From: a virus
Lineage: Duplodnaviria; Caudoviricetes
Virus record (IMG/VR): IMGVR_UViG_3300038829_000181
Span: 1 to 41,508 of that record
Length of the DNA: 41,508 nt
Strand: one strand, 5' to 3'
Part shown: piece by piece, positions 3 to 40,397 of the stretch
How the letters are laid out: each line of letters opens with the position of its first letter
Numbering within the stretch: the first letter of the stretch is position 1
Notes under the pieces: model-generated
Databases searched by the model: none
Told to the model about the DNA's origin: nothing
Seen by the model: the letters and a program-made list of their open reading frames with translations, nothing else
Position numbers and translations under genes: made by a program

Positions 3-129
3 GTTGGGCGGTTCCTGAAAATGGCTCAAATTTTATTCGGACAAATCTAATTAATGGAGAATAATGAAACCATCATTCAAAATAACTACAAGTTTTCCTC
101 TTAATCTGTCGTTGATATTAGTTATTGCA
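3..129. repeat. 127-bp terminal direct repeat (copy at 41382-41508), probably an assembly overlap indicating a circular genome
   Basis: GTTGGGCGGTTCCTG...GTTATTGCA is identical at 3-129 and 41382-41508. Bases 1-2 (CC) differ from 41380-41381 (GA). Confidence 0.95.
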
Positions 130-681
130 AGTGGGCTTGTTTCCTGTTCTCAACAACCAGTAGCTGCGAGTTCAGCCCAAAACGATTATTTGCCCGTTGC
201 CACTCAAACGGCAGAGAGTAAACCAACTGAAAAAGTTGAAAATTTTGAAACTACATATGGCATCACAGTCACAGCAAAAGCATTATGCACAGATGGTACA
301 AATACTACGCTCTATTTAGAGACTAATCTTGATTCGAATCTCTGGCAATTAAACGAGAAAGACTTTCACCCTCTTGGGAAGACTTACTTTGAGACAGGCA
401 TTTTATTCTTGGAAAATGGCGAAATGTTTTCGATGTATTCAAGTGGACACCGCGATGAGCCAATTTTCAATTCACAAAATAACATAGCCAGCACAATACA
501 AACCTTTGTTTTTCCAAAGACACCCTCGGAAAACTCCACATTTACTATCAAGGCAAAAGTGTCTTTGCTTGATTTACCCACTACCTATGCTCCCCCAGTT
601 AAGATGGATTTCTTAGAACCTGGAATTATCGAAATCCCAATGGAATATGTTGCATCTGCAACCATGGGAGTATGTCCGTAA
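64..681 (+). CDS. Integron cassette 1: putative lipoprotein
   Basis: GGAG RBS, hydrophobic signal with lipobox LVSC, AT-rich. Lies between core site GTTGGGC (3-9) and attC1. Confidence 0.85.
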   Translation: MKPSFKITTSFPLNLSLILVIASGLVSCSQQPVAASSAQNDYLPVATQTAESKPTEKVENFETTYGITVTAKALCTDGTNTTLYLETNLDSNLWQLNEKDFHPLGKTYFETGILFLENGEMFSMYSSGHRDEPIFNSQNNIASTIQTFVFPKTPSENSTFTIKAKVSLLDLPTTYAPPVKMDFLEPGIIEIPMEYVASATMGVCP

Positions 682-690
682 AAAAAAACC

Positions 691-820
691 GCCCAACAAA
701 GCGTGCACCTGACGCTGGGGATTCTGCGCAAATCCCAAGCAGTTTTCTACGCCTTATCATTTTTCCAGTTGGACGGCTTCGCCGTCCCCGCCCCAGCGCT
801 GGTAACGCAAACCGTTGGGC
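691..820 (+). other. attC site 1 (130 bp)
   Basis: R'' GCCCAAC at 691-697, internal imperfect palindrome (CGCTGGGG/CCCCAGCG), R' GTTGGGC at 814-820. Confidence 0.92.
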
Positions 821-842
821 GCTTACTTGCAAAAGGAGAGTT

Positions 843-1184
843 ATGTGTAATTCGGTAATTACCGTTGGCGCTGTGGCGTGCCTAGTCTGTGAGAAAGACA
901 TCACAGAAGCCATTCACGAGAATTTTTATCGTGACCCAGTTCAAACATACAAACAATATACTTGCCCGCATTGTCAAACGTTGCTTGATGTTGAAGTGAT
1001 TCCCGTTCCATATTTTCAATTGTCAATGCCTATTGGTCGTCTGGCTTCAACGCGCAAAGGTGTACCTTGTAAATACTGTGAAATTTTGGTTGAGTATGGC
1101 GATATGAAACCCTGGCGCAAAGATGACGATACCGTTGATATGCTTTGCCCTGGCTGTGATTGCGTTCTCGTCGAAGGCGAATAA
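843..1184 (+). CDS. Integron cassette 2: small protein with four CxxC motifs (putative double zinc ribbon)
   Basis: AAAGGAG RBS before ATG 843. Motifs CLVC, CPHC, CKYC, CPGC. The longer track ORF from 672 merely reads through attC1. Confidence 0.8.
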   Translation: MCNSVITVGAVACLVCEKDITEAIHENFYRDPVQTYKQYTCPHCQTLLDVEVIPVPYFQLSMPIGRLASTRKGVPCKYCEILVEYGDMKPWRKDDDTVDMLCPGCDCVLVEGE

Positions 1185-1187
1185 CGC

Positions 1188-1295
1188 GCCCAACAAAGCG
1201 TGCAGCCGACGTGTGCAAGGCTGTGGCGTAAAGATGTATCATTCCAAAAATAAGGTTATGGTTGGTCGCACACGCCGCTAAAGCACACGTTCTAC
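1188..1295 (+). other. attC site 2 (108 bp)
   Basis: R'' GCCCAAC at 1188-1194 followed by AAAGCGTGCA as in attC1. Stem CGTGTGC/GCACACG. R' GTTCTAC at 1289-1295. Confidence 0.85.
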
Positions 1296-1328
1296 CGCCA
1301 CTTGGCAAAAATAAAAGGAGTTGTAAAG

Positions 1329-1682
1329 ATGGAATTTACTAGAGAAGATACCCCAACAATCATGGATGGTGCTGTAGTTAGATATAGGTGTGGAGATTTT
1401 GAAATCAACGCTAGCAGGAATGGTGTATCTACCAATGGCTTTATGCCAATGATCCGTCAGCAGGAAGATTTAGATACTGTCTGTGAATACATGCGGCGGG
1501 CATTCAGGCAGTACGTAGCTTTATCACCAAATCGTTGGTTAACGCGTAGTTACGCAAGCCCGCTTCCTGAATCCGTCTTTGAGGCGGTAGAACACAGCTT
1601 GCACCCGACAAGTGAGACTCTGCCCGATCTACAAGCATCATCCACGCCTGAGCATTCGGCGACATCTCAAAGTGAATCCTAG
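1329..1682 (+). CDS. Integron cassette 3: hypothetical protein whose C-terminus is encoded within attC3
   Basis: AAAAGGAG RBS, ATG 1329, stop at 1680-1682 inside attC3. Confidence 0.75.
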   Translation: MEFTREDTPTIMDGAVVRYRCGDFEINASRNGVSTNGFMPMIRQQEDLDTVCEYMRRAFRQYVALSPNRWLTRSYASPLPESVFEAVEHSLHPTSETLPDLQASSTPEHSATSQSES

Positions 1683-1715
1683 CCCGCTCACTTGCGGGTA
1701 AAGCAAACGTTATGC
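1587..1715 (+). other. attC site 3 (129 bp)
   Basis: R'' GTAGAAC at 1587-1593, stem ACCCGACAAGTGAG/CTCACTTGCGGGT, R' GTTATGC at 1709-1715. Confidence 0.85.
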
Positions 1716-1759
1716 GGGCTGTCTTGCTCGCAATCTCAATAATAAAAAGGAGTAATAAA

Positions 1760-2002
1760 ATGCAAAGTCGAAATGAATTGGATCAGGTTGTCAACACAGA
1801 AGTTTTTGAAAACAATGATGAACTCAAAGCCAAGTTTGCCGAAGTGATTGAGAAGTCCGAAAGCCTGGGCGCTGTGTCTCATGCAATTGGTGAATTACCC
1901 AGCAAGGGAAGCACCGTTGATATTCTTGGCTTGCGCTACGAAGTCAAGTTTGTTGATGGTAAGCATGGCGAATTGCGCCTTAAGTTGGTGTCGCCCGCAT
2001 AA
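1760..2002 (+). CDS. Integron cassette 4: small hypothetical protein (80 aa)
   Basis: AAAAGGAG RBS, ATG 1760. The stop TAA lies in the R'' box GCATAAC, as is typical for cassettes. Confidence 0.8.
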   Translation: MQSRNELDQVVNTEVFENNDELKAKFAEVIEKSESLGAVSHAIGELPSKGSTVDILGLRYEVKFVDGKHGELRLKLVSPA

Positions 2003-2126
2003 CATCGCGTGCACCCGACGCTGGGGATTCTGGCGCGATTCCAAGCCTTTTTCTACGCCTCAGCATTTTCCCAGTCGGACGGCGTTCCGCCGCCCGCCCC
2101 AGCGCGGGTAACGCAAACCGTTGGGC
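1997..2126 (+). other. attC site 4 (130 bp), same family as attC1
   Basis: R'' GCATAAC at 1997-2003, R' GTTGGGC at 2120-2126. Shares GACGCTGGGGATTCTG, TTTTCTACGCCT, CCCAGCGC and GGTAACGCAAACCGTTGGGC with attC1. Confidence 0.92.
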
Positions 2127-3203: not shown

Positions 3204-3827
3204 ATGCCCATTCAAAAGCCCGATTATCAATTGTCGTTCAACCTCGATCTGCCAGAAGAAACTGGCGATTCGACGATTCAGCGACTCAGCGCGGATGAGA
3301 TCCGCCTGCGCTCCGAGACGGCGCGGCAGGTTTTTGAGGGACGCGATGATTTGAAGTGGATGGAGGAATATGCCCGCCTGCGCGACGGAGGCTGGGATTG
3401 GCGCGTGGCGGCTTATATTGCCTGGGCGAGTTCGCCGCGCTCGAGCCGCATTCCGAAAACGCAGGATGAGCTGGCAATAAATCATTTGGGTTTGACCTCA
3501 GACCGAGCGATTGCCACCTGGCGCAAGAAAAACCCCGCCATTGATGAGATGATCGCAATGTTACAGGCAAGCCCGCTCTGGGATTATCGCGCTGAGGTGT
3601 TTTCGGCGTTGACTGAGAACGCGGTCAAGCCCGATTACAAGACCCATAACGACCGCAAACTTTTCCTTGAATTGACTGGCGACTATGTCCCCAGCTCGAA
3701 ACTTGCGGCAATGATTACGAAGAATGGATTTAGCAAGAACGATCTGGCAGATATGAGCGATGATGAATTGCTGAAACTCGCCAAAAATTTTCGTGATGAA
3801 GTGACGAAAGACGAAGAGGAAGAATAA
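3204..3827 (+). CDS. terS: Terminase small subunit (putative)
   Basis: HTH-like segment PKTQDELA..LGLTSDRAIATWRK. Directly upstream of and coupled to TerL. Confidence 0.7.
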   Translation: MPIQKPDYQLSFNLDLPEETGDSTIQRLSADEIRLRSETARQVFEGRDDLKWMEEYARLRDGGWDWRVAAYIAWASSPRSSRIPKTQDELAINHLGLTSDRAIATWRKKNPAIDEMIAMLQASPLWDYRAEVFSALTENAVKPDYKTHNDRKLFLELTGDYVPSSKLAAMITKNGFSKNDLADMSDDELLKLAKNFRDEVTKDEEEE

Positions 3828-5416
3828 TGCTTGCGTCTTCAAATGTTGCCCAGAAAGCTCAACACGATCCGCGCAAGGCGGCTCTTGTTGCTTTGCAACG
3901 GGAGCAGGCACGCAGGCATTTGCTGGATTTTGCAACGATGATGCAGCCAAATTATCAGCGGACGGCGGCGCATGAATTGATCGCTTCCAAGTTGGAACAG
4001 GTGGAGAAGTACATCGTCAGCGGCGGCAAGGAAGGCATCGGACGCTTGATGATCTTCATGCCTCCGCGACATGGCAAAACGGAATTATCGAAATTATTTC
4101 AGGCTTGGTTTTTGGGACGCAACCCAGATATGCGGGTGATCACCACCTCTTATTCTGCGGACCTTGCGAACGATAACAGCCGCGCGGTGCGTGACCTGGT
4201 TGCAGGCAAACCATACGCGGGAGTATTTGGCAATTTGACATCGAGCGCGTCGCCTGTGGAGCTTTCGGATGATGCGCGTTCTGTTTCGGCGTGGTCACTC
4301 AAAGAGCCGCATAAGGGCGGAATGCTGGCGGCAGGCGTGGGCGGCGGTATTACGGGACGCGGGGCGCATCTGCTCAATATCGATGATCCATTCAAAAATC
4401 GCGATGAGGCTTCGTCGGAGAGTCATAGAAAGCGCGTTCTAAGCTGGTATCGCTCAGTGGCTTACACCCGTTTGGAGTACGGCGGCGCGGTGGTGTTGAT
4501 CAATACGCGCTGGGATCAGGAAGATTTGAGCGGCGAACTGCTGAGGCACATGGTCAGCGACGAATTGGGCGATGATTGGGAGATCGTTTTCCTGCCCGCG
4601 TTTGCGCTTGAAGAAAAAGATTACCCAAAGAACGATGCCGAATTCAAAGAGAATTTATTGCGCGGTATTTACATCCCCCAGGGCGGGGATCAGATCGGGC
4701 GCAAGCCTGGCGACCCGCTTTGGGCGGCGAAGTATGACCGCGAGCGTTTGGAGATCATCCGCTCGAATACATTGGACTTCGAGTTTACGGCGCAATATCA
4801 ACAGATGCCGCGTCTGGCTGAAGGTAATTTTTTCGATGACCGAGATTTTCCAATTGTGGAGCGCGCTCCCGAAGGTTTGCAGTGGTTCCGTTATGTGGAC
4901 CTTGCGAAGGGTCAGAACACGGGCAACGATTTCAACTGCACGTATGCGGTGGCGTTCGATAAAGATGGCGATCTGTTTATCCGCGACCCGTTGAAGGAGA
5001 GAAACATCGATGAGTTTTTGCCGCAGTGCAAGATGCTGATGTTGAGCGATACGGAATTGGGCGTGGCATGGGGCATCGAGGATGTTGCGTTTCAGTTTTT
5101 GGTGGTGCGCGATTTTCTGTCTGATGCGCGGCTGGCAAATGTCTCCATTATCGGTTTGCCCGTGAAAGGCTCGAAGGAAGATCGGGCGCGGGCGTGGCGT
5201 TTGCGGGCGAAGCAGGGCAGGGTGAAACTGGTGCGCGGTTTATGGAATTTGGATTTCATCCGCATTGCTTCGGCTTTTCCGAATGGACGGCACGATGATG
5301 ACGTGGATTCGGTCAGCGGCGGTGTGGCGATGATCGCGGGCGATGGAATGAATTTGCGGACCGCAAGCAGTGAGGCGATTGTGGTGAGCGCGGAATTGTT
5401 GTTTAGTGATCAGTGA
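3827..5416 (+). CDS. terL: Terminase large subunit
   Basis: Walker A MPPRHGKT, GITGRGAHLLNIDDP (Walker B), TRW motif, nuclease motifs YVDLA and FPNGRHDDDVDS. Confidence 0.95.
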   Translation: MLASSNVAQKAQHDPRKAALVALQREQARRHLLDFATMMQPNYQRTAAHELIASKLEQVEKYIVSGGKEGIGRLMIFMPPRHGKTELSKLFQAWFLGRNPDMRVITTSYSADLANDNSRAVRDLVAGKPYAGVFGNLTSSASPVELSDDARSVSAWSLKEPHKGGMLAAGVGGGITGRGAHLLNIDDPFKNRDEASSESHRKRVLSWYRSVAYTRLEYGGAVVLINTRWDQEDLSGELLRHMVSDELGDDWEIVFLPAFALEEKDYPKNDAEFKENLLRGIYIPQGGDQIGRKPGDPLWAAKYDRERLEIIRSNTLDFEFTAQYQQMPRLAEGNFFDDRDFPIVERAPEGLQWFRYVDLAKGQNTGNDFNCTYAVAFDKDGDLFIRDPLKERNIDEFLPQCKMLMLSDTELGVAWGIEDVAFQFLVVRDFLSDARLANVSIIGLPVKGSKEDRARAWRLRAKQGRVKLVRGLWNLDFIRIASAFPNGRHDDDVDSVSGGVAMIAGDGMNLRTASSEAIVVSAELLFSDQ

Positions 5417-5447
5417 TCAGTTTTCAGTAATCAGTAAGGAGAACAAC

Positions 5448-8066
5448 ATGACTAAAAAAATCGGTAAAGGCAATTTGATTACAGAGTTGGTGAAGGGGAG
5501 CATGGATTACACAATTCAAATGCTGCGCGATGCGTTTTGGAAACAATTCCCTGATGCGAGCGGAAGTTATTACATCGCTGAAATCTTTGCGGATTATGTA
5601 ATCGTCTCTGGCTGGGGTGAAGCGTGGTCTTTAAAAGCCGATGAATATTACAAGGCGGCTTATTCAAAAGACGGCGATACCCCTACCTTTATGGCAAAGG
5701 ATCAATGGGAAATCGTTGAACTTACTTACCAGCCGCAAAGCGTGATCACGGAAAGCAAGAAGAAAGGCGGTAAGCGTTTTGAGGAAGCCATCGAGCCTGG
5801 GCGGATCGAATTGCTTGAAGCAAAAAATGAAGCAAAGGGGACGCGGCGCATACGGATCAACGAGTTGATCGTGGCGAATGTTGTGAATGGAAATAAACGT
5901 CTTTATGAACCTGAGATCGTTGAGGCGATGATTGACGATTGGCAATCGCATCTTCACGAATCGGCGGGGCAGGGACGTTTGAAAGTACTGACTGGCGAGG
6001 CTGATCATCCAACCGACAAAGGCAAGAAACGCACAGAGTACCTTGAGACAGTTGTCCGTTGGGACAAACTGGATTGGGACGGTAAGCGGCTCGATATTGA
6101 GGGCGATCTTATCCTGACCAGCAAGGGACGCGACGTTGAGATCCTGATGGAGGCTGGCGTTAGACCAGGCGGCAGTATTCGTGGTATTGGCGAAAGCAAA
6201 GTTGAAAAGGTCAACGGGCAGAAGGTCGAGAAAGTTTTGTGGCTCTCGATGAACGGCGTTGACCTGGTTGGCGACCCGTCATTCAAGAATGTGGCGGAGT
6301 TACAAGAATCTATCAATCTACAAGGAGATGTTGAAATGTTAGAAGAACTCAAAAAATTACTCGCTGAACATCCTGAATTGTTCAGCAAAGGCATGACCGA
6401 ATCGGAACTCGAAAAGATGGGCGAGAAACAGTTGAAGAAACTGGAAGAATCGCTGCGCAATACGTTGGGACTGGGCGCGGATGCGAACATCATCGAAGCC
6501 GTGAAAAGCAATGCCGATAAAGCCAAGAAGTTCGATGCACTTCAGGAGAAGGCTGGCATCGATGCCGCTATCACTGAGGCGACGAAGGAACTTCTGTTCG
6601 GAAAGGAACTCAACGAAGCGTTCACCGAATCGATCACGGATGGAAAGTTCAACAGCGCGGATGAGGTGAAGACCTTTGCCGAGAGTCAGCGCAAGGTATT
6701 TGGAAAACTTGCGGCAAGCAGCAAGCTGAAAGGCAGGGGCTTCCAATTTGACGGAAAGATACAGCCGATGGGCAGCGTGCTGGAGAATGAGACTGGCACG
6801 CCTGAATTTGCGCGGGTTGCGTTTGAACTGACCGAATCGGTGCGCAAGCATGAAATGCGCGCGAAACGCACTTTGGATTTACGCGCTGGAAGCCCCGCCG
6901 CTGTTTTGACCGAGATGCTCCTCGAAAAATACGATAAACAAAACATGCGCCACTTGATAGCTGAGGCGAAAGCCTTTGAAGAGGCGGAAAGTACCAGCGA
7001 CCTCAACCTGCCTTACAGCGTGAGCCGCGCTGTGATCGCCGAGGCATACCCGAATTTGGTAGCCGCCAATATCTTTGACTTCGGCATCATGGATCAAAGC
7101 CCGATGAATATCTTTTACGAAGCATTTACGGGCGAGACAGGTTTCAGCGCGACAATCACGGATGAGGTGGAAGCGCTGGGCGCGGAGGATACCTGGTATG
7201 CCCTGGCTCATCCCAATATTGTGCCTGGCACTGTTGTTGTGACCGAGAATCCTTTCGTGACTATCACCTATGTGGAAGGCACCGATTACGTAATTGACTA
7301 CGAACTCGGAAAAATCCGCGCGATTGCTGCGGGAGCCATCAACGCGAATGACGTGCTGGTAGATTACACCTATCACGCCACTCGCCAGGGCGAGAACACG
7401 GAAATCGAACGCGCGAAGACCACGCTCAGTTTCCAGACTATCACCGCAGCCGCTGACCGCCTGGCTGATTACATCACCCATGAGGCGATTGTGTTCAGCC
7501 GCTCGCAGATCGGTTGGGATGCTGTCGGTCGCACGATGGCAAACTTGATCCGCGAACTGCGCCGCGATAAGGACCGCCGTTTGATCGAGAAGGCTTTGGC
7601 GGTTGCCCTTTCAGTGGCAAGCAATAAGACCGCCGCCTGGGACATCAGCGATGCGGTTTATCTCGATTTCGTGAAGCGCATCGGCGAAGCCAAGGTGAAG
7701 GTTGTGAACCGTTTCTACACCCCGACCTCGCTGGTGATGAGCGCGACCAACTCGGATTACCTGAGCAATTGGGACGGCTTTACCCGTGATGGTTTCACCA
7801 ATGCCGAATTGAATGCGGCTGGTTTCGTTGGCAGAGTGAAGGGACTCAATGTTTGGGAGACCCCTGAAATGCGCGACAGCTTCAACCTGGTGCTGGATCG
7901 CGGCATCCTGATGCATCGCATCTTCCAGCCCATGCTGATCAAGGGACCGTTCCCGACCTACAGCAATGGCAAACTGGTTGCGGCAGAGCAATATTATGCC
8001 GAAGAATACAACGCATCCCTCGCGCCAATTGGCGGCAAGGGCAGTGTTGTCCCGACACAGGCGTAA
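5448..8066 (+). CDS. Fused prohead protease / scaffold / major capsid protein
   Basis: Protease motifs NGNKRLY, GEADHP, GSIRGIG and DLVGDPS, then a helical scaffold-like region, then a capsid-like C-terminal half. AAGGAG RBS before ATG 5448. Confidence 0.85.
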   Translation: MTKKIGKGNLITELVKGSMDYTIQMLRDAFWKQFPDASGSYYIAEIFADYVIVSGWGEAWSLKADEYYKAAYSKDGDTPTFMAKDQWEIVELTYQPQSVITESKKKGGKRFEEAIEPGRIELLEAKNEAKGTRRIRINELIVANVVNGNKRLYEPEIVEAMIDDWQSHLHESAGQGRLKVLTGEADHPTDKGKKRTEYLETVVRWDKLDWDGKRLDIEGDLILTSKGRDVEILMEAGVRPGGSIRGIGESKVEKVNGQKVEKVLWLSMNGVDLVGDPSFKNVAELQESINLQGDVEMLEELKKLLAEHPELFSKGMTESELEKMGEKQLKKLEESLRNTLGLGADANIIEAVKSNADKAKKFDALQEKAGIDAAITEATKELLFGKELNEAFTESITDGKFNSADEVKTFAESQRKVFGKLAASSKLKGRGFQFDGKIQPMGSVLENETGTPEFARVAFELTESVRKHEMRAKRTLDLRAGSPAAVLTEMLLEKYDKQNMRHLIAEAKAFEEAESTSDLNLPYSVSRAVIAEAYPNLVAANIFDFGIMDQSPMNIFYEAFTGETGFSATITDEVEALGAEDTWYALAHPNIVPGTVVVTENPFVTITYVEGTDYVIDYELGKIRAIAAGAINANDVLVDYTYHATRQGENTEIERAKTTLSFQTITAAADRLADYITHEAIVFSRSQIGWDAVGRTMANLIRELRRDKDRRLIEKALAVALSVASNKTAAWDISDAVYLDFVKRIGEAKVKVVNRFYTPTSLVMSATNSDYLSNWDGFTRDGFTNAELNAAGFVGRVKGLNVWETPEMRDSFNLVLDRGILMHRIFQPMLIKGPFPTYSNGKLVAAEQYYAEEYNASLAPIGGKGSVVPTQA

Positions 8067-23404: not shown

Positions 23405-23448
23405 AAAACCAAGCATCCTTCTCAGTGATGAGAAGGATGCTTGGTTTT
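23405..23448. terminator. Bidirectional terminator between convergent late operon and integrase
   Basis: Perfect 20-bp stem AAAACCAAGCATCCTTCTCA-gtga-TGAGAAGGATGCTTGGTTTT. Confidence 0.85.
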
Positions 23449-25059
23449 TACGTGGAATGCTGTTTTGAGAATGTGTCTATATAGAGGCGGTCCCGACGGG
23501 GGTTGGAATGTAGACACATTCTCAGGCGCCGCGGGACCGTGGGCTTTTGGGAGGTTGGGCGGGGGGTAGTAGTAATAGATTGTGCCGTGGAGCATTTTGT
23601 CTTCGCGGCGGACTTCTACGCGGTCTACGATGAGGCGGAGGAGGAGGCGTTGGGTGTCGAGGTTGGCGGCGGCGAAGGCTTGGGCGTAATTGACGGCGAT
23701 GTAGGCGAGCACGTCTGGGGGGATTGCGGAAACGGGTTCGATGGCGGAGGCTTCGAGATCGGCGAGTTGGCTTTCGAGATCGGTTTCGTCCATCTCCAGT
23801 TCTTTGAGACGTTTGGCGGGGGCTTTGGCTTGCTTACCAAGTTCTTCGAGGATATCCATCACGTTGGTAATTTTCTTTCGGACGGAAGCAAGCCTGGTCT
23901 TGAAGTCGAGGCGTTTTTCTGTCTGTTTGACCAACTGCTTGGCGGAATCAGACTTCAGTTGTTCGTAGGCGGCGAGGAGATTTTCTGGCTTGAGGATGAC
24001 GCTTGTAATGGTATCCCTGACGGCGTTCTCGACCGTCTCGCGTGGGATGCGGCTCTTGGTGCAGTCGCGTTTTCGATAGGCGCGGGTGCAGAAGTAGCTG
24101 TCGTAGGTCTTGCCGCTTTTTTGCGGAGAGGAACGACCGAAGAGAGGCGAGCCACAATGAGCGCAGCGACCGATGCCGCTGAGAAGGAAGCGGGATTTGG
24201 CACGGCGCGGATGATCCATTGAATCAGTGGCGACGTGCTTTCGGCGGGCGTAATGATTTTGGACGATCTGCACCTGGTTCCATAATTCGGGGCTGACCAT
24301 CGGTTCGCAATAATTTTCGATGACGAGATCTGCGAATTCAAGCGTGCCTTTGTAGATTTTATTGGCGAAGAAGGTGGAATAGGAGTTGATGCCGCTGTAG
24401 AGTTTGGTCTCTTTGTGGATCTCGCCCAGCGATATGCGACGCACGCGCATTTCGTAGGCTCGCCTGACGCGGGGGATAAAGTCTGGGTCTGGAATCCACT
24501 TGTGGGCGGTATGAGGCGTTCCGTCGCGCCGCAAACCGATGGTGACAGGCTCACGCATAAACCCGCGCGGACATCCGCCAGGGACGCATCCATAGCGTTC
24601 GACAAGATTTCGCAGGCCGCGTTTGACATCGAGGGAGAGGTCTTCGAGATATTGTTCGTCCTTGAAGTCTATGGCGGCTTCAAAGAGGCGGCCCATGGGA
24701 CCATCGGGCACTTTGTCGTTCATGCTGTAGAAGATGTAGCCCAGAGTGCGAATCTCAGCGCGAAAGAATTGAGCATTATCCACCGAGCGGGCGAAGCGGT
24801 TATATTTCCAAACGACTACACCGCGTTCGCTGCATTCGTGACGGAAGGCATACATCATGGCTTGCAGTTCATCACGTTTGACAACGCTGGAGCCGCGCCG
24901 CGCTTCATCCTTGAAGATGCGAGTGACAACCAGGTTATTTTCTGCCGCCCATTTGCGCAGTGCGGCTTCTTGTTGTTCTATGGAAAGTTCCTGGTCTTCG
25001 TGACCGCTATCGCGCAGGTAGCAGAAGATTCGGTCGGCAGGGGAGAAGGGGAGGGTCAT
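23422..25059 (-). CDS. Large serine recombinase (phage integrase)
   Basis: Catalytic YLRDS, SIEQQ, NRFAR, recombinase domain, zinc ribbon LLSGIGRCAHCG...YFC...C, coiled coil. Start at MTLPF is assumed. Confidence 0.92.
   Translation of the reverse strand: MTLPFSPADRIFCYLRDSGHEDQELSIEQQEAALRKWAAENNLVVTRIFKDEARRGSSVVKRDELQAMMYAFRHECSERGVVVWKYNRFARSVDNAQFFRAEIRTLGYIFYSMNDKVPDGPMGRLFEAAIDFKDEQYLEDLSLDVKRGLRNLVERYGCVPGGCPRGFMREPVTIGLRRDGTPHTAHKWIPDPDFIPRVRRAYEMRVRRISLGEIHKETKLYSGINSYSTFFANKIYKGTLEFADLVIENYCEPMVSPELWNQVQIVQNHYARRKHVATDSMDHPRRAKSRFLLSGIGRCAHCGSPLFGRSSPQKSGKTYDSYFCTRAYRKRDCTKSRIPRETVENAVRDTITSVILKPENLLAAYEQLKSDSAKQLVKQTEKRLDFKTRLASVRKKITNVMDILEELGKQAKAPAKRLKELEMDETDLESQLADLEASAIEPVSAIPPDVLAYIAVNYAQAFAAANLDTQRLLLRLIVDRVEVRREDKMLHGTIYYYYPPPNLPKAHGPAAPENVSTFQPPSGPPLYRHILKTAFHVKTKHPSHH
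23466..23524. other. Candidate attP within the 3' end of the serine integrase gene
   Basis: Perfect 14-bp inverted repeats TGAGAATGTGTCTA/TAGACACATTCTCA around a 31-bp centre containing a sequence like a tRNA 3' end. Confidence 0.6.
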
Positions 25060-25105
25060 AAGCGTTACACGTCGAAAGTCGAACTTCGGAGGGGGGGGAT
25101 TTCGG

Positions 25106-25660
25106 TCATGGCAGATTCTCGCAAGCAAGTCCGTCATTTTCACGGTCAAGGCCATAAATATCCCCATAGCCCAAAGATTTACAGTATTCATAACATGCTT
25201 GTGCTATAGAGTGTGTTGGAAAATCTTCCACTTTGCAATCAAGGTCAATGCCTGTACATGAGCATAATTTCCCGCCTGATGACGGTGGTTGTGTTTGCTG
25301 TATTTGTTGCGTCGCTAAAGAAAAAGGCGTGTTGGTTGAATAAATATATTCGGTCAGTTGTACTACATTGGTTTGAAGTTGGAAAATAAATATTGTGGCT
25401 GTTGGGGCAATTTCAATCGTTGACGCAAGTGTTGTAGTGGAAAATGGCATTGGATTGGATATCGCAGTTTGAGTTTGAGCAGATGAGGAAGTAAGCGCGA
25501 TGATGCTGGAAAGGGGAAGTGGCGTATCTTGAATTGGCGCAGATGTTGAAAGAGTTGAATCGCTGGAAGCAACCGCAAGCACGAGAACCAGACAAACACA
25601 ACATAAACTTACGATGACAGCAATCGAATAATTCAATATTTTGCGGGTTGTTTTTTTCAT
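25106..25660 (-). CDS. Membrane-anchored protein with Ser/Thr linker and excalibur-like Ca-binding C-terminus
   Basis: N-terminal TM, DLDC..F...AQ and LDRENDGLACE motifs. Confidence 0.75.
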   Translation of the reverse strand: MKKTTRKILNYSIAVIVSLCCVCLVLVLAVASSDSTLSTSAPIQDTPLPLSSIIALTSSSAQTQTAISNPMPFSTTTLASTIEIAPTATIFIFQLQTNVVQLTEYIYSTNTPFSLATQQIQQTQPPSSGGKLCSCTGIDLDCKVEDFPTHSIAQACYEYCKSLGYGDIYGLDRENDGLACENLP

Positions 25661-25816
25661 TTCACCCAATGCGCTGGATAGAGACGAATTTCCAGCCAGC
25701 GCAGATAAAAGTATTTGATGTGTTCGATGACTTGGTAAAGAGTGGGGAATGAGTGCCAGAGAATAAGCAAAGTGAAGCGCAGTTGTTGAAGCGGAGGAAG
25801 GTATTTCCAATCCCGC

Positions 25817-26203
25817 TCAATCGCCGCGCGTCTTTCCTCGCTTTGATGTTGTTTGAATCCGTTCAGTGATTTTCTTCGCTTCATATTTTGCGGCTTCCTC
25901 CGCGATCTGTCTGGCAATTTGTTCCTGTTTTTCTTCGCTCATGAATTCCCAATTGTTGATCGCAACTTGTAAATATGGATTAGGGTGGGGAAGACCCATT
26001 ACATCGTAAATATCATTTCCAAATGTTTCAGCAAGTAGTTTGATATTTTCTCTGCCAGGCTTTTTATTGCCATTCATCCACATATTGAGAAGTGGACGAC
26101 TTACACCCAAATAAATAGCAAATTCTTCGACGGTTTTTCTTTTCCCCAGACTCGCCTGCCATTCAACAAATTTTCGGTTTACCCATTGAGGAAATGTATC
26201 CAT
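25817..26203 (-). CDS. CI-like repressor (XRE HTH)
   Basis: EEFAIYLGVSRPLLNMWMNGNKKPG helix-turn-helix, divergent from the cro-like gene. Confidence 0.85.
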   Translation of the reverse strand: MDTFPQWVNRKFVEWQASLGKRKTVEEFAIYLGVSRPLLNMWMNGNKKPGRENIKLLAETFGNDIYDVMGLPHPNPYLQVAINNWEFMSEEKQEQIARQIAEEAAKYEAKKITERIQTTSKRGKTRGD

Positions 26204-26304
26204 TGATATTGATATTGTAGTGGTAATAAGTGGCATATGTAAGACCCTTGACATAATTTGAATAAGTGGTTACTATGTAACCTAAGTTACATATCGAAAC
26301 CGCC
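26204..26304. promoter_or_regulatory. Lysis/lysogeny switch: divergent promoters and two operators
   Basis: Rightward TTGACA(26248)-17-TACTAT(26271). Leftward TTACAT-17-TACAAT, 10 nt before the repressor ATG. Operators TATGTAA-N6-TKACATA at 26236-26255 and 26274-26293. Confidence 0.8.
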
Positions 26305-26619
26305 ATGGAGATAAAAATGGATTTTACGATTAGCGATCTTATGAAACAGACGTTCCAAAAAACAGGATTGAATCACGAAACCTTTGCGAACGCTCTCAAT
26401 GAAAAATTGATCAACACTAACATCAACCGTGTATCTGTTACGAATTGGAGTAATTCCAAGTCGTTTCCGAACACGGATTTTTTATTGCTATGCGCGGTCA
26501 TCTACCATGATTATCGTTCCGAGTGGGCAAAAGCCGCCCTGCGTATCAAATTGCCAGAAGTCTTTGATAGCGGAATGGTCATCTTCCATCTTCCCAAACA
26601 ATCGACGATCACAGAATAG
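26305..26619 (+). CDS. Cro-like HTH regulator
   Basis: GLNHETFANAL...NRVSVTNW....FP pattern, first early gene. Confidence 0.75.
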   Translation: MEIKMDFTISDLMKQTFQKTGLNHETFANALNEKLINTNINRVSVTNWSNSKSFPNTDFLLLCAVIYHDYRSEWAKAALRIKLPEVFDSGMVIFHLPKQSTITE

Positions 26620-26635
26620 CACAGGGGATTCAGCG

Positions 26636-27127
26636 ATGGTGAATCTGGGCGATTTTCTCAACCAATATGCGGCGAAATTGCAGGTCTTATTGCCTGTGAT
26701 CGTAGCGCTGATCATCCTTCTGCCAGTGTTTGGTTACTTCTACAACCGCCTGATGGACAGACTCAAAGGAAAAGAGCATACGTCCATGTATGTGGCGGGC
26801 GGCGTGTTGGTCACGCTGGGGGCGGGGGCTTCGATTTCGTGGAAATCTGCTTTGTTATTTTTGGTCTTGTTTGGTTTGGATGGCATCTTCATGATGGTGG
26901 GCGAATATAAACGCACCGAGAAGCAAGCCAAGGTGAGAGTGAAGCGCCTGCCTTATAAAGCCAACGCCATGATCGATGCCGCGAAGATGTCAGCCACCAC
27001 GATGCACATGTTGATCGGAAAGATGCTCGAAGCCTATGATGAGAAATTACTGAACCGCGTCCAGCATGAACTTACGACGGTTTTGGTCACACTGGAAGAA
27101 TTGAAAAATGTTCAACGCGATCATTAA
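26636..27127 (+). CDS. Hypothetical membrane protein
   Basis: About three hydrophobic segments, start at MVNLG. Confidence 0.7.
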   Translation: MVNLGDFLNQYAAKLQVLLPVIVALIILLPVFGYFYNRLMDRLKGKEHTSMYVAGGVLVTLGAGASISWKSALLFLVLFGLDGIFMMVGEYKRTEKQAKVRVKRLPYKANAMIDAAKMSATTMHMLIGKMLEAYDEKLLNRVQHELTTVLVTLEELKNVQRDH

Positions 27128-27436
27128 ATGCAAACCGACTTCCAAGTGGAATTTGTCCCGCTCCCCGCAGAACGAGAAGGCGAGTGGCGGCAAGCCATCG
27201 AGTTGATCGCCGAGATCATGAAAGGATATTTTATGAACATGCAGATTGCAGAAACCAATCAATATCGCTTTGCGTGGATATTCCCTGGCGATGCTGAAAC
27301 ACACTATGGAACTTTTTTGTTCGATGATCCCGCCGATGCGCGGGGCACGCAAAACACGATGCAGATGATGTTTCGCAATGCGGTGATCTGGCTGGAAGAT
27401 CGGGAACATAACCGAGTGGAGATACCACGATATTAG
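27128..27436 (+). CDS. Hypothetical protein
   Basis: ATG directly follows the previous stop. Confidence 0.6.
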   Translation: MQTDFQVEFVPLPAEREGEWRQAIELIAEIMKGYFMNMQIAETNQYRFAWIFPGDAETHYGTFLFDDPADARGTQNTMQMMFRNAVIWLEDREHNRVEIPRY

Positions 27437-27473
27437 CCCGCTCTGGCTGTTCAAATGGCAAAAGGAAAAAATC

Positions 27474-27641
27474 ATGAAAAACTTTTTTTATCGCCAACCG
27501 CGCACGGCGGCAATGCTGGCAATCGTAGCATTTGTGCTTATTTGCCTGACTGTGTTTGTTATAGCTAACCCGCAAGTATTGGGCGGCTTGCACTTCGGCG
27601 GCGCGTGTGTTTGGCAAGACAGCGTCCGCTATTGTAGATAG
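27474..27641 (+). CDS. Small membrane protein (55 aa, not in ORF track)
   Basis: AAAGGA RBS, MKNFFYRQPRTAAMLAIVAFVLICLTVFVIA...YCR*. Confidence 0.55.
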   Translation: MKNFFYRQPRTAAMLAIVAFVLICLTVFVIANPQVLGGLHFGGACVWQDSVRYCR

Positions 27642-27664
27642 ACGGGCTAACAATATATCGAGTT

Positions 27665-27708
27665 GGACTGCCAGGCGTTAAACAACGGTTCGATTCCGTT
27701 GCAGTCCA
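27665..27708 (+). ncRNA. tRNA-like minihelix (acceptor stem plus T-arm only)
   Basis: GGACTGC/GCAGTCC 7-bp stem plus A, T-arm AACGG-TTCGATT-CCGTT, 12-nt linker in place of the D and anticodon arms. Confidence 0.6.
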
Positions 27709-27880
27709 TTAGGCGGCCTGGTAAACCGCCGAAAGAGAGCAAGTGCTTTCGTTCTCTCCTCCTTTGGTAATGGTGACATCCTGGTTAGCTTGGCTTGATC
27801 AGGATGTTACCAGAGCCGAGGAAGACCAGTAAACAGTAATCAGTGAGCAGTAATCAGTCAAACCAAAAGGAGAAAATACC

Positions 27881-28126
27881 ATGATTGCAAAAGGAACAAT
27901 TGTCGAAATTTTTGAAGACCCCTTTACCAGGACGCGCAAAGAGGGAAATGCGAAAGTGGTTGTGCATATACAAGAACTCCAGCCAGGGGTAGATCAATAC
28001 AAGGTTCATTTCATAGGGGACGATGATGGACTGGCGGTGACACGCACAATTGTAGAGCCGCCGAGGTGTTGCTGTTATGAGCGCCAGGACGACAACATCA
28101 ACTGCCCGATACATGGGAGGGTTTGA
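27881..28126 (+). CDS. Small hypothetical protein
   Basis: AAAAGGAG RBS, Cys/His-containing tail. Confidence 0.7.
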   Translation: MIAKGTIVEIFEDPFTRTRKEGNAKVVVHIQELQPGVDQYKVHFIGDDDGLAVTRTIVEPPRCCCYERQDDNINCPIHGRV

Positions 28127-28129
28127 ATC

Positions 28130-28306
28130 ATGTTTTCAATAGGCGATCCATTCACAGGCAAGCGCACCGATATGCGCTATGAGACGCAGGAACTCGCTGA
28201 CATTGCCGCAATCGAAGCCAGCATAGACGATCATATCTGGGCGGTGTGGGACGAGGACAATGGGGAATTGGTCTCGCTGGCGTTTCAAGAACGAATTTTT
28301 GATTAG
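28130..28306 (+). CDS. Small acidic protein (58 aa, not in ORF track)
   Basis: GGAGG RBS, MFSIGDPFTG...QERIFD*, fills the gap between neighbouring genes. Confidence 0.6.
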   Translation: MFSIGDPFTGKRTDMRYETQELADIAAIEASIDDHIWAVWDEDNGELVSLAFQERIFD

Positions 28307-28316
28307 GAGAGAAACC

Positions 28317-28844
28317 ATGAGCAAAAAACATTACGAATCCATCACTGTCTACGAAACCGTGAAAGGCAAACAAATTGCCAAAGTCCGTATGATTGGAATG
28401 CGGCAGGAAACGGCGAACTTTATCAAATGGATTCGCAACCAAAAGAATGAATTCTTCTATATTCGCCCTGACCAGATAAAGATATTTGATGCTTTTTTTG
28501 CCTTGGGGATAGGAGAAGGTAAAACCGAACTATCCCAATATTTGAATGAATATGATGCGATTACAAGCGGCAGGTCATATTCTTCCAAGTCAGATGGAAA
28601 ATCGGAACAATTCAAGGTTTTTCAATGCGCATACACTCTGCATAAATACTTTCTCAAAGGTAACATGCGCCCCATTGAGAATTTCATCTCCATGCTGGTA
28701 GATATTGCCAAAGAGAGCGATTACGAAAAGCCAGCGATGGAAGTGAAAGCCTTATTATCCAGCATCAAAACCGAACTTGATAAACAGATCGAAATATTCG
28801 ATCTTGCCGATGTACTCAATCGTGGCGCGGAAAAGGGCGAATGA
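28317..28844 (+). CDS. Hypothetical protein
   Basis: AGGAG RBS before MSKKHY. Confidence 0.7.
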   Translation: MSKKHYESITVYETVKGKQIAKVRMIGMRQETANFIKWIRNQKNEFFYIRPDQIKIFDAFFALGIGEGKTELSQYLNEYDAITSGRSYSSKSDGKSEQFKVFQCAYTLHKYFLKGNMRPIENFISMLVDIAKESDYEKPAMEVKALLSSIKTELDKQIEIFDLADVLNRGAEKGE

Positions 28845-28845
28845 T

Positions 28846-29769
28846 ATGCAAACCAATTACCAATTACCAACTACCCTCACCCTCCACTGGCTCGATCAAT
28901 TCAAATCTTACCTCGAAACCGATCATCGCAAAGTCACACATCGCCAGTTGAGCGATAAATCAATCAGGCTTGCAGTACAGCATGTCCGCGTGTTTGGTCT
29001 CTGGCATGAAGCGCAATTCAAAGAAACCTTCGAGCCTGGCACGCTCACCAACTATGCGTTGCACCTTTATCGAAAGGTATCGCTTGAGCAGGAAAAGGTC
29101 AAAGCTGCAACGTGGAACAGCCGTCATTGGGCGCTCGGCATCCTTTGTACATGGATTGCTCTTCCCGATCTCATGGATGGCATCGAGCAAAAACAAAAGG
29201 GACGCGCATCTACCAAGCACCGCAGTCTCACCGATGATGAATATCACTGCATCGTCCGCCAAATCGAAAAAGACACCCGCGATGAAGTTCTTGAATTCCA
29301 CTATCACACTCGCCTGCGCAATCGCGCCGCAGTTGCGTTCATGCTCCATGCTGGTTTGCGCGTTGAGGAAGTTTCCCTGCTTGCTGCTACTGATGTGGAG
29401 ATATGGGAGCGCAGTGGCGAAGTTTTAGTCCGCGACGGGAAAGGAGATAAAGAGAGATCAGTCAGATTGAACCTGGTCGCACGCAATTCAATCGCTCCCT
29501 ATCTCAATCTGACAGTTGATACTGCGTCCCTGTTAAGTCTCACCACCCGAACATTAGAGCGCATCGTCAAGGAGATTGGTCAACGCATCGGCATCCCTGA
29601 TCTAACTCCGCACTGGCTGCGCTACACAGCCGCCAAACGCCTCGAGCAAACAGGTTCTACGCTCGAAGAGATCCGCGATTTTCTTGGACACAACTCAATC
29701 GAGACCACCCGCCGCTATCTCCGCTCCTCAATGGAGCAAATGCAAGCGGCAGTTGATAGGGCGATGTGA
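28846..29769 (+). CDS. XerC/D-like tyrosine recombinase
   Basis: AGLRVEE, GKGDKER, PHWLRYT and LGHNSIETT.RY catalytic motifs. Lacks the IntI insertion. Confidence 0.9.
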   Translation: MQTNYQLPTTLTLHWLDQFKSYLETDHRKVTHRQLSDKSIRLAVQHVRVFGLWHEAQFKETFEPGTLTNYALHLYRKVSLEQEKVKAATWNSRHWALGILCTWIALPDLMDGIEQKQKGRASTKHRSLTDDEYHCIVRQIEKDTRDEVLEFHYHTRLRNRAAVAFMLHAGLRVEEVSLLAATDVEIWERSGEVLVRDGKGDKERSVRLNLVARNSIAPYLNLTVDTASLLSLTTRTLERIVKEIGQRIGIPDLTPHWLRYTAAKRLEQTGSTLEEIRDFLGHNSIETTRRYLRSSMEQMQAAVDRAM

Positions 29770-31385
29770 TGTCAAAAAAGAAATCGTATATCACTGTTAC
29801 AGATCAATTCTGTGGCGCTGGCGGAAGCTCGATTGGCGCAACGAAAGCAGGCGCTGAATTACGCCTGGCGATGAACCATTGGCAATTGGCTATCGATACC
29901 CACAATACCAACTTTCCACAAGCGGATCATGACTGCGCAGACATCTCAGCTTCCAATCCGCGTAAATATCCATCGACCGATATTCTAATCACCAGCCCCG
30001 AATGCACAAACCATTCATTAGCAAAAGGGAAACCACGGCGCTTTTATGAGAAGAACCTTTGGGGCGATGTGCTGATGGATCCCGCCGAAGAACGCAGCCG
30101 TGCAACGATGTGGGATGTCCCCCGCTTTGCTGAATATCATAATTACAGACTGATCTTTGTTGAGAATGTTGTGGATGCTGCCAAGTGGTGCATGTGGGAT
30201 GCCTGGCTTATGGCAATGCACGCGCTCGGATATGAACATGAGGTAATTTATTTCAACTCCATGTTTGCGCATCCCACTCCACAGAGCAGGGACAGGCTTT
30301 ACACGGTCTTCTGGAAGAAAGGCAATAAAAGGCCAGACCTTGAGTTCTGTCCGCGCGCGCATTGTGCCAAATGTGGAACGGATGTCAATGCCATTCAAAC
30401 ATGGAAGAAGCAAGGCAGGCATTGGGGCAAATACAAGGCGCAGTATTTCTATCGCTGTCCGAATTGCCATCGTGATGTCACGCCCTATTACTACGCCGCC
30501 TTCAACGCCATCGATTGGTCGATCCCATCCACGCGCATCGGCGACCGCAAAAAGCCTCTCAGACCCAAGACCATTGAACGCATCAAATATGGTCTCGATG
30601 CCTACGGACGCCAGATGATGATCGTCACTGGTCGCTATACCAGCGGGATCGAATGCCGTGTGAAGGATGCGACCAGAGAGCCGCTTCCCACCCAGCCAGG
30701 AGATGCCAGCCATGCCATAGCGTTACCCTGGCTGATAGATAGCGCTCACACATCTAGCGGAGGCAAGCGATCAAAGTCCGCTCATGATGCACTCCCTACA
30801 CAGACCTCAGCCCAAACGCTTGGCGTTATTCAAGGCTTCCTCACCAAGCATTACGGCGGCGGAGCCAAGCCCGAATATATGTCCTCTGGCATGGATTCAC
30901 CCACTGGCACCATGACTACTTCAGGCAATCAATCGCTTGTCATCATCCCCGCAGAATTCAAAAAGCAGTTTGGACTTGTTGATCCAGCGTTCATCGCAAA
31001 TATGCGCGGAGAACCAACAAGAGCAAGCGGCATCAACGATCCTCTGATGTGCGTTACTTCAACTGGCAGCCACCATGCGCTTGTCTCAGCTGGTGCATTC
31101 CTATCCTATTACTACGGCACTTCGCAGGCTTCGGGCATGGCAGACCCAATCCATACCATGACGGGTGTTGATCGTGCCGCCCTGGTCCAGGTATTGGATA
31201 GTCTGCGGGTCGAAGATATGTACTTTCGCATGTTGCAACACAACGAGATCGGCAGGGCAATGGCATTCCCTGAAACCTACGTGGTGCTCGGCACCATCCG
31301 CGAGAAGACCAAGCAATACGGCAACGCCGTCACACCGCCAGCAATGGAGATATTGATCGAGCGATGTAAGGCGAGCTTGCAGTAG
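29769..31385 (+). CDS. DNA (cytosine-5) methyltransferase, phage orphan type
   Basis: DQFCGAGG (motif I), SPEC (IV), ENV (VI), QSRDR (VIII), YGNAV (X), long variable region. Confidence 0.9.
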   Translation: MSKKKSYITVTDQFCGAGGSSIGATKAGAELRLAMNHWQLAIDTHNTNFPQADHDCADISASNPRKYPSTDILITSPECTNHSLAKGKPRRFYEKNLWGDVLMDPAEERSRATMWDVPRFAEYHNYRLIFVENVVDAAKWCMWDAWLMAMHALGYEHEVIYFNSMFAHPTPQSRDRLYTVFWKKGNKRPDLEFCPRAHCAKCGTDVNAIQTWKKQGRHWGKYKAQYFYRCPNCHRDVTPYYYAAFNAIDWSIPSTRIGDRKKPLRPKTIERIKYGLDAYGRQMMIVTGRYTSGIECRVKDATREPLPTQPGDASHAIALPWLIDSAHTSSGGKRSKSAHDALPTQTSAQTLGVIQGFLTKHYGGGAKPEYMSSGMDSPTGTMTTSGNQSLVIIPAEFKKQFGLVDPAFIANMRGEPTRASGINDPLMCVTSTGSHHALVSAGAFLSYYYGTSQASGMADPIHTMTGVDRAALVQVLDSLRVEDMYFRMLQHNEIGRAMAFPETYVVLGTIREKTKQYGNAVTPPAMEILIERCKASLQ

Positions 31386-31406
31386 TCAAACTAAAAGGAG
31401 AATGAA

Positions 31407-31853
31407 ATGGCAAACCAAATCCGCACATCTGAAGAAATTGAGAAATTGAAAGCATCATACAAACACGATCCCTGCTGGGATATTGAAGATAGCGAAGGCT
31501 TTGAAGATTATCACGATGAACTGCTAGCTTGGCGCAAAGAATACGAAGCCGAGTGTGAGGCGAAAAATCAAGAGCTAGATAACCAGCGCATCGAAAAGGT
31601 TATGAACGTAACTGGAATTGGGAAAGCAGATAAGGATTTGCTTTTATCTCTTTTCACATGGAAGGAAATTGAAAACAATATTCATGGTACTGAAAGAAAT
31701 ACAGATGACCCTCAGGTATCCATGATCGGTTCTCTTGTCCGCGCAACCCTTCTCCAAGCTGCCCAACTCAAACGCATCGCCGATGCTCTCGAAAGTATGG
31801 CAGATGGCGACAGCTTGAGCAACTCCGTCAAGTTATGGGGAAGCAAACCATAA
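31407..31853 (+). CDS. Hypothetical protein
   Basis: AAAAGGAG RBS. Confidence 0.7.
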   Translation: MANQIRTSEEIEKLKASYKHDPCWDIEDSEGFEDYHDELLAWRKEYEAECEAKNQELDNQRIEKVMNVTGIGKADKDLLLSLFTWKEIENNIHGTERNTDDPQVSMIGSLVRATLLQAAQLKRIADALESMADGDSLSNSVKLWGSKP

Positions 31854-32010
31854 CCCTCCGCAAGATTTCAACCGCCAATTATCGAGCCACTCTGCCCCTG
31901 CCCGCCCGCCGCGCATCCACTTTGAAGCAGTAGAAGAAAGAATCCCAATGTTCACTAAATACATGGGCGCAACGGTCTACAGGCAAGGTCACTACCAGAA
32001 AAGCGCAGCT

Positions 32011-32038
32011 GTGTCAGGTAATGGGCATTATGCGACAT
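32011..32038. other. dif-like 11-6-11 tyrosine recombinase site (candidate)
   Basis: GTGTCAGGTAA-TGGGCA-TTATGCGACAT, with inner TAA/TTA as in Xer sites. Confidence 0.5.
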
Positions 32039-32227
32039 AAACAGGCGGTTGGCAGGCATTACTGGCGGTTAGATTGGGCTGTAAGGCATAAATTATTTGT
32101 CGCATAAGGTGAGCGGGGAGGGGGGGTGGGGGTGTTCGGCGAATTGTTTTGTTTGTGCGGATAGGCTTGTGGCGGCACGGCTCGGATAGTTATAAAAATT
32201 CTGGAAAAACGCTGGAGAAAAGGTCTC

Positions 32228-35419: not shown

Positions 35420-35700
35420 ACAAGTGAACAGTTATAGCCCGCTGGCGACAAAACATAATTATTTTTGTCGCGGGACGGGAAAAGTGTTCACTTGTTCATT
35501 TTGGCAGGTTTTGAGCGGTTTTTGTTCGTTTTTTGGTTATTTCGAAGTAAAAGTACGGTTTAGTTAGTTAGTTAGTTAGTGAAGAAGTGAATATATATGA
35601 ATGAATATAAGGTAGTATGCGCGATTTTGCAATGCATCAAGTGAACAAGTGAACAGTTGATTTATGAGATGTTCACTTCAACTACTAAAGTGTTCATTGT
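35415..35700. other. Putative replication origin with iterons
   Basis: AGTGAACAAGTGAACAGTT at 35415-35433 and 35640-35658, inverted TGTTCACTTGTTCA at 35485-35498, (TAGT)5 at 35561-35580, AT-rich. Confidence 0.65.
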
Positions 35701-35719
35701 CAGACAAATGGAGCGAAAT

Positions 35720-37269: not shown

Positions 37270-37272
37270 GAA

Positions 37273-38250: not shown

Positions 38251-38254
38251 TTCG

Positions 38255-38563: not shown

Positions 38564-38566
38564 GTA

Positions 38567-39558: not shown

Positions 39559-39560
39559 AG

Positions 39561-40394: not shown

Positions 40395-40397
40395 AGA

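Follow-up and report, generated by a model that had tools for sequence, protein, structure and literature searches.

What is a row of gene cassettes doing in a phage genome, and which integrase put it there? The window examined here is the complete 41,508-nt viral contig IMGVR_UViG_3300038829_000181 (Duplodnaviria; Caudoviricetes), and an earlier note made from its sequence had read bases 3 to 2126 as four mobile integron cassettes, recognisable from the self-complementarity of their two ends. That reading is right but ordinary. The array was not linked there to an integron integrase gene (intI), to an attI site or to the phage. In the interpretation that we favour, with a probability of roughly 0.78 judging from the sequence, the array is the store of a complete integron inside a temperate phage, whose own IntI probably takes up circular cassettes and rearranges them at a predicted attI. 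The matching of cassette ends is ordinary; the point of interest is the carrier, a phage with an integrase and a predicted attI site.

Cassette ends and attC sites

Are the cassettes genuine? The target of IntI is attC in the form of its folded bottom strand, where the AAC of the R' box is cut; such sites display extrahelical unpaired bases (as described in PMC5027507). A cassette circle carries its own R''/R' pair, and insertion at attI by G/TT crossover splits the R' box and leaves the half that matches R'' at the start of the cassette. An exact complementarity of this kind, over 11, 9, 11 and 11 nt between the start of each of cassettes 1–4 and its own R'', had been claimed for the window, and a recount returned the same values; the lack of matching inside the array for attC2–4 is equally real, R'' and the next R' being complementary over 8, 3, 3 and 3 nt in attC1–4. 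All eight boxes lie where they had been placed, with the G of GTT at 3, 814, 1289 and 1709, R'' boxes ending at 697, 1194, 1593 and 2003 and a further GTT after the array at 2120, and the cassette spans are correct for a G/TT cut.

Since GTT/AAC represents three bases fixed by definition, the informative complementarity amounts to only 8, 6, 8 and 8 nt. Moreover, cassette 1, cassette 2 and the site after the array all have the commonest core; they therefore cross-match over 8–9 nt and say less, and most of the weight of the end-match evidence falls on cassettes 3 and 4. As a control for chance we used a pool of 20 cassettes with strong sites only (4 from the window and 16 from relatives): the own pair reaches at least 9 nt in 18 of them, against 3.7% of 380 mismatched pairs.

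The earlier note had proposed to circularise each cassette in silico, to fold the bottom strand and to score it against an attC covariance model. When this is done, the R and L boxes pair and two bases are extrahelical in the bottom strand of each circular form, with folding energies of −36.0, −26.1, −30.6 and −45.9 kcal/mol for attC1–4 (z −4.6, −3.3, −5.2 and −5.9), while the array forms fold more weakly, at −34.0, −18.1, −19.2 and −38.0 kcal/mol (z −3.5, −0.3, −0.3 and −2.8). The unpaired G and T (bottom strand) near L'' are found in identical places in all four sites. A covariance model trained solely on 27 host chromosomal attC sites, which had been chosen by an in-house detector, matches all four on the bottom strand with 104.8, 44.5, 81.3 and 97.4 bits; the other two of its six matches in the 41.5-kb window (15.2 and 11.5 bits) fall on attC1, in the top strand, and at attC4; the rest of the 41.5 kb gives no match. 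A relaxed detector, run at its low threshold on two control stretches of 12 kb, called 6 and 7 sites that were false, and we have therefore restricted attC counts to strong sites or covariance-model matches. A search of the window against Rfam, whose listing holds no attC family, gave 0 matches.

It is hardly credible, then, that the hairpins are generic terminators or repeats with end matches arisen by chance: two of the four cassette starts do have the commonest core, but a host-trained model scores the sites at 44–105 bits, the extrahelical bases are conserved, an IntI adjoins the array and the own pairs stand far above the mismatched control. The claim that these are true mobile cassettes and not generic hairpins is supported, the pattern being what G/TT crossover leaves. 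That the four had been independently circularised holds in the sense that each was joined at G/TT as a unit; four separate single circles, or a recent arrival, are not implied. Fully complementary core sites have been reported for 51 of 58 cassettes (PMC4909258), and the end-matching signature is a textbook criterion that holds no surprise.

Integrase and predicted attI across the circular join

Where is the integrase? Bases 3–129, the start of cassette 1, are repeated over 127 nt with 100% identity at 41382–41508, and this terminal repeat makes the contig a circularly permuted molecule of 41,379 bp. Across the join IntI adjoins the attC cluster, so the array is not a cluster of attC sites lacking an integron integrase (CALIN). 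The protein matches VchIntIA (2a3v) over its full length (E 2e-79), IntI-specific insertion included, and it has the catalytic residues R134, K159, H265, R268, H291 and Y300, invariant in 8 aligned proteins. It falls outside class 1, at 46.5% to the class 1 integrase and with an NF011946 score of 313 against a cut-off of 435. The layout is also not the classical divergent one, as intI and the cassettes both lie on the plus strand with attI 3' of intI: it is an inverted-integrase layout, in which intI is transcribed towards attI. The gene begins 3 nt past the stop of a DUF5131 gene, and its own stop codon ends 6 nt ahead of the GTT of cassette 1, so that insertions at this crossover would leave the integrase intact. 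Of 14 viral relatives, 11 share such tight packing (20 nt or less from the upstream stop) with the window, compared with 113 nt in the chromosomal relative L096. In 7 of 7 pairs tested, the non-synonymous divergence of intI (dN) is 0.13–0.25 and the synonymous divergence (dS) at least 1.6, which indicates long-term purifying selection.

The predicted attI is built into the end of this gene (Table 1), the right arm of its inverted repeat consisting of an L-like box together with the intI stop codon (41373–41375). In 10 of 10 aligned loci the sequence stays unchanged as far as the GTT and varies beyond it, and first cassettes match their own R'' starting at the attI GTT. The palindrome has a z of −5.3 and its pairs are kept in 83% of cells; as covariation does not exceed that of shuffles (85/500), we read it as a putative symmetrical binding site only and claim no single-strand structure. 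A second attI type is found in the other integrase sub-branch (L005, L031–L035 and L083). A long type-B attI pattern had matches in 0 of 180 loci and a shorter pattern only in 5 records already in the set. Locus L021/L030 was considered as an empty attI site, its post-GTT sequence resembling the post-array segment of the window; this was rejected, as the start of the same contig has the matching R'' and three attC, so that the first cassette is split by the contig break.

How would the cassettes be expressed? Upstream of attI we found no site resembling a cassette promoter (Pc), with 2 sites in 38200–41508 against 6.2 expected by chance. Since intI also closes the rightward early/replication run, we infer read-through of intI and cassettes from a phage promoter, with no separate Pc. 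Upon induction the integrase and the promoterless cassettes would then be co-transcribed, and the accompanying replication would supply single strands for cassette recombination.

Table 1. Features of the window (positions in the 41,508-nt contig).
Feature	Position	Strand	Description
Cassette 1	4–814	+	205-aa predicted lipoprotein (64–681); attC1 (691–820), host-type attC
Cassette 2	815–1289	+	113-aa protein with CxxC pairs, predicted zinc ribbons (843–1184); attC2 (1188–1295)
Cassette 3	1290–1709	+	117-aa protein (1329–1682), last ~30 residues read through attC3 (1587–1715)
Cassette 4	1710–2120	+	80-aa protein (1760–2002); attC4 (1997–2126); stop codon within R''
Post-array segment	2121–2260	+	Promoter-like site 2178–2207, promoter match 10/12 (matches across this region are at chance level)
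Phage late genes	2404–23390	+	Holin-like pair, terminase (3827–5416), protease-capsid fusion, portal, tail, tape measure (Pfam/PHROG)
Lysogeny module	23422–26254	−	Large serine integrase (23422–25191), helix-turn-helix repressor (25817–26254) (Pfam/PHROG)
Early/replication genes	26305–40394	+	Second tyrosine recombinase, DNA methylase, primase, ParM-like actin, DUF5131; run ends in intI
intI	40398–41375	+ (cassette strand)	325 aa, intact frame; TIGR02249 405 bits (cut-off 265)
Predicted attI	41349–41388	+	Inverted repeat 41349–41379, 5-nt spacer, R box from 41382, crossover G/TT 41382/41383

Relatives, host and cargo

Is this integron peculiar to one phage? Relatives of the integrase were collected from scans of viral contigs and genomes and placed in two trees, the first of which omits 19 rows that are partial or have a stop within the matched stretch. 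The window IntI falls in a branch supported by a Shimodaira-Hasegawa-like approximate likelihood ratio (SH-aLRT) of 99, which holds 15 of 146 rows in the first tree and 16 of 76 in the second. Its 16 members are 15 viral records and L096, an Anaerolineales chromosomal contig (75%) where the integrase has a desaturase, a haloacid dehalogenase-type (HAD) hydrolase and a tryptophan dioxygenase as neighbours. The viral records compared with the window number 16, including L015 and L022, which have partial integrases and the same attI; L030 was scored through its contig start, L227. The host-trained model finds attC sites in 14 of these 16, all downstream of intI and on the matching strand, and the contig of L005 ends 126 nt past attI. 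The end-matching rule also extends to the relatives: after 8 of 43 model-defined intervals had been left out because the model ends do not fall on AAC/GTT, 26 of the remaining 35 match their own end over at least 8 nt and 2 of 35 match the next start. The nine misses comprise six long intervals, which probably contain undetected attC, and three with mismatches near the core.

The carriers are diverse. Their terminases belong to phrog_38 (the window, L003 and L029), phrog_9 (L001 and L032), phrog_2/5909 (L022) and phrog_979 (L083), and the array precedes lysis or packaging genes in 9 of the 16 and primase in L004, L031 and L034. The closest phage, G402 (terL 73%, terS 74%), has the same gene order and a different array at the same place, and only one pair of homologous cassettes was found between different phages, with no homologue of the four of the window. 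The arrays of relatives also hold genes resembling DNA methyltransferases, radical SAM proteins and queuine tRNA-ribosyltransferases (L002 8651–9526, 9561–10625 and 11262–11840; L004 9951–10514 and 11112–12023; L032 9971–10723; L048 10400–11203), cargo which could modify phage DNA. A second phage integrase lineage, at about 48% to that of the window and of unsure position in the trees because of long branches, likewise has its arrays downstream of the integrase on the same strand, together with a distinct attI motif (L048 8001–13000, L075 2230–5200 and L076), which could mean that this layout originated twice among phages.

Which bacterium is the host? In 32 of the 401 genomes searched, all from the class of genome G001, attC1 has matches, with up to 96% identity to chromosomal sites, and attC1-like sites are also found in named Anaerolineae loci (L154, L166 and L172); attC1 and attC4 are of host type. 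This points to a member of the Anaerolineae as the likely host, as far as can be judged from a search for attC1 that covered this class. The terminase gave 10 matches in the same genomes, at 34–52%, too weak to name a host. Anaerolineae are common in groundwater and wastewater, and the sequencing runs examined come from groundwater or wastewater samples. One host integron, L226 (G220:C31), has near-identical short cassettes, apparently gene-less, in series behind attI.

Was the integron then captured as one block from a host chromosome, to travel as inert cargo in the manner of the phages of Qi et al. (2023)? The host-type attC1 and attC4, the occurrence of the cassette 1 family in other arrays, the chromosomal branch member L096 and the decayed integron of L001 would all fit. 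Yet among the 110 of 401 genomes that have an IntI only G001 is close (75%), the other full-length matches being at 62% or below, and of 24 such host loci none falls in the branch and none has a downstream attI motif, although two identical loci among them have one downstream attC-like site. More widely, 71 genome integrase rows divide into 29 with the classical upstream array on the opposite strand, 1 with a downstream site and 41 with none detected. Since, in addition, arrays differ between phages at the same site and intI is under purifying selection, we consider inert cargo unlikely.

A different possibility is that the phage site is live and served in trans by the classical IntI of the host, the phage integrase having another job or being dispensable. 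An IntI is indeed available in more than a quarter of the genomes of the likely host class, the box geometry is common to host and phage attI (the distance from box to GTT in Anaerolineae attI is the same by eye), and L001 retains its cassettes despite a truncated integrase. Against this, attI is built into the end of the phage intI, the two attI types track the two integrase sub-branches and lysogeny is served by a separate serine integrase, and we regard action in trans as quite improbable. An integron operated by the phage's own IntI remains our preferred explanation.

Is the order of the array real? The contig breaks inside cassette 1, and bases 1–2 are of an attC-type context, unlike the attI context at 41380–41381. 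In run X1, which may be the source run, a cassette 1 contig starts exactly at base 3 and is separate from a contig over 789–2036, and in runs X3 and X4 contigs start exactly at base 1. Near-identical copies of cassette 1 are found in wastewater runs X4 and X7, from two other studies, with an attC-type pair of bases before the GTT. This suggests that several different upstream attC sites precede cassette 1, and the cassette has more than one context, be it in other arrays, as tandem copies or as circles. We do not use contig depth (23.8 for cassette 1 against 7.6 in X1, 6.6 against 2.4–3.8 in X3) as evidence, depth not being copy number, nor the missing cover over phage genes in X4 and X7, since a hole is not an absence. 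It might be argued from the foreign two-base start, from a contig that both starts and ends in cassette 1 and from the separate contig in X1 that the assembly was joined at a repeat and that its order is untrue. However, at its end the contig runs from attI straight into the first 127 nt of cassette 1, the X1 contig bridges attC2 and attC3 without differences, and L003, L029 and G402 share the order of intI, array and late genes; a false join, very unlikely in our estimate, would at most alter the copy number or place of cassette 1.

Where could the cargo have come from? In the model of a phage-resident integron it would have two sources: chromosomal arrays of the host would have supplied cassette 1, attC1 and attC4, and small genes of phages cassettes 3 and 4. 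All cassettes point in one direction, each gene has its own ribosome site, and none of the four proteins belongs to a Pfam, PHROG, NCBIfam or PADLOC family. The cassette 1 protein has a signal peptide and lipobox, read from the sequence; an atlas match below 0.9 is a lead only. Its relatives in metagenome contigs (four at 81–83% and one at 64%) include L176, flanked by other cassettes and with identical 11-nt ends, L177 with both ends identical, L180 with an identical start and its end beyond the contig, and L178 and L179 with related ends. The cassette 2 protein has 14 homologues, itself counted. Its C-terminal zinc-ribbon half is 64–93% identical to the ends of P0025–P0031, whose N-termini are unrelated, a pattern that we read from the sequences as module swapping among small genes.

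Gene 3 runs to a stop 89 nt beyond R''. A relative at 61% lies in an ordinary phage gene run without attC (L029), and three others, at 89–92%, diverge abruptly at the start of attC3, each with another, unrelated tail; judging from these protein tails, they would have different attC bodies. The cassette 4 protein is without a Pfam match and has a lead to the CorC/HlyC transporter-associated domain (atlas 0.92 to PF03471 clusters, and source names), and a relative of its gene at 37% stands in an ordinary phage gene run, outside any cassette and without attC (L033). A search of viral contigs for cassette genes 3 and 4 confirmed nothing. Conversely, unrelated genes can have identical cassette ends (window cassette 3 and L029 cassette 2; L003 cassette 2 and L227 cassette 2). 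These plain phage relatives, the divergence at attC3 and the shared ends hint that phage integrons act as cassette factories, in which small phage genes would gain an attC at or near the stop, attC sites would be swapped at R'' and the products traded with host arrays. This idea is tentative and rather doubtful; if it is true, phages are a source of new integron cassettes, and gene families that occur in both states, as a cassette and as a plain phage gene, offer in any case a concrete handle on cassette origin, which is to our knowledge an open question.

The post-array segment resembles the beginning of the first G402 cassette (86% over 64 nt) and has no matching R'' anywhere downstream; from this comparison it is likely the 5' remnant of a fifth, promoter-bearing, cut-down cassette. 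A family of two-gene cassettes with a palindrome across the promoter is found in L028 (8974–9741), in the third interval of L022 and in G402 (38277 onward), and these are probably self-regulated; the window retains a similar 5' end only (2121–2183).

The genome around the array is that of a temperate tailed phage, as judged from its genes, with terminase, portal, capsid protease, tail, tape measure, integrase and repressor all present. The holin-like pair was assigned by reading alone, having no family match, and the head protease and major capsid protein seem to be fused in one 886-aa frame (5406–8066). A hairpin before the first late gene (2337–2365) recurs in G402 (2424–2468), L032, L001 and L048 and might serve the late operon as a leader element; a further inverted repeat is located near 2258–2289. 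At the end of the serine integrase gene there is a perfect 20-nt inverted repeat (23405–23448), a candidate for a terminator or attP. The ParM-like actin with a small downstream gene (37273–38563), the serine integrase and the second tyrosine recombinase (28777–29769) suggest that the phage may persist both integrated and as a plasmid.

Several points weigh against an active integron of the phage's own. Circles, reordered variants of the array and transcripts were not seen, and the absence of a Pc-like site has been mentioned. L035 has no attC model match, and in L001 (2048–3075) the integrase stops right after the catalytic tyrosine and runs into an attC, without attI. L096 being chromosomal, the IntI branch is not phage-only. 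The trees were quick ones without bootstrap, and the host integrases were sampled from one class together with the best 80 genome matches. Finally, given the break in cassette 1 and its foreign start, the order of attI, cassette 1 and cassette 2 rests on assembly.

Comparison with known integrons

If the integron is active, as we propose, such phages would be holders of their own platform for sampling accessory genes and not merely passive carriers, as well as a route for cassettes between Anaerolineae. How does it compare with what is known? The chromosomal integrons of Anaerolineae are alike in attC type (up to 96%), in attI box geometry and in the cassette 1 family, and unlike in that the layout is nearly always divergent where an array is seen and that their integrases fall in other branches. 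With VchIntIA and the Vibrio cholerae repeats (VCR) the window shares full-length integrase homology (2a3v) and attC sites with R/L boxes, extrahelical G and T, an unpaired spacer and a variable end; it differs from the system described in PMC5027507 in having two extrahelical bases and not three, a short mixed array and a phage as carrier.

The reverse layout itself is known from the integrons of Treponema (PMC3607928; PMC4889954; PMC4909258); these are chromosomal and not phage-borne, and a Pc has been reported for them (PMC4909258). In T. brennaborense the R box is placed about 215 bp past intI (PMC3607928), while in the window the intI stop codon lies within attI and a phage gene immediately precedes intI. 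The likeness concerns layout only, our trees having contained no Treponema IntI, and the inverted-integrase group is described as paraphyletic (PMC4889954).

Integrons in phages as such are also known. In the one survey that our search returned (Qi et al., 2023; PMC9892861), 10,705 phage genomes yielded 3 complete integrons, 1 In0 and 17 CALINs, the complete ones being in Vibrio phage Va_90-11-286_p16, P1 L-II and Shewanella prophage M16-3. As in the window, intI, attI and attC cassettes lie within a temperate phage genome, and the Shewanella attI has, by eye, the same box spacing before GTT; a tblastn search of INPHARED gave 9 records, the phages of that survey among them, with 46.5% as the best match. 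The three complete integrons are host-type, that is, a subset of the host integron, class 1, or with an integrase 95% identical to a chromosomal one. Here the nearest genome match is L096, at 75%, the others staying at or below 62% over the full length among the genomes searched. Our literature search, thin on subscription journals, returned no description of a phage-adapted IntI branch in the same orientation as its cassettes. What appears to be novel, on the sequence evidence, is thus a complete reverse integron that is resident in phages and likely active: in contrast to the integrons of Qi et al., it has an integrase of a mainly viral branch that is directed towards the array and recurs with unrelated terminases, and it combines this compact layout with an attC type and cassette families that host chromosomes also use.

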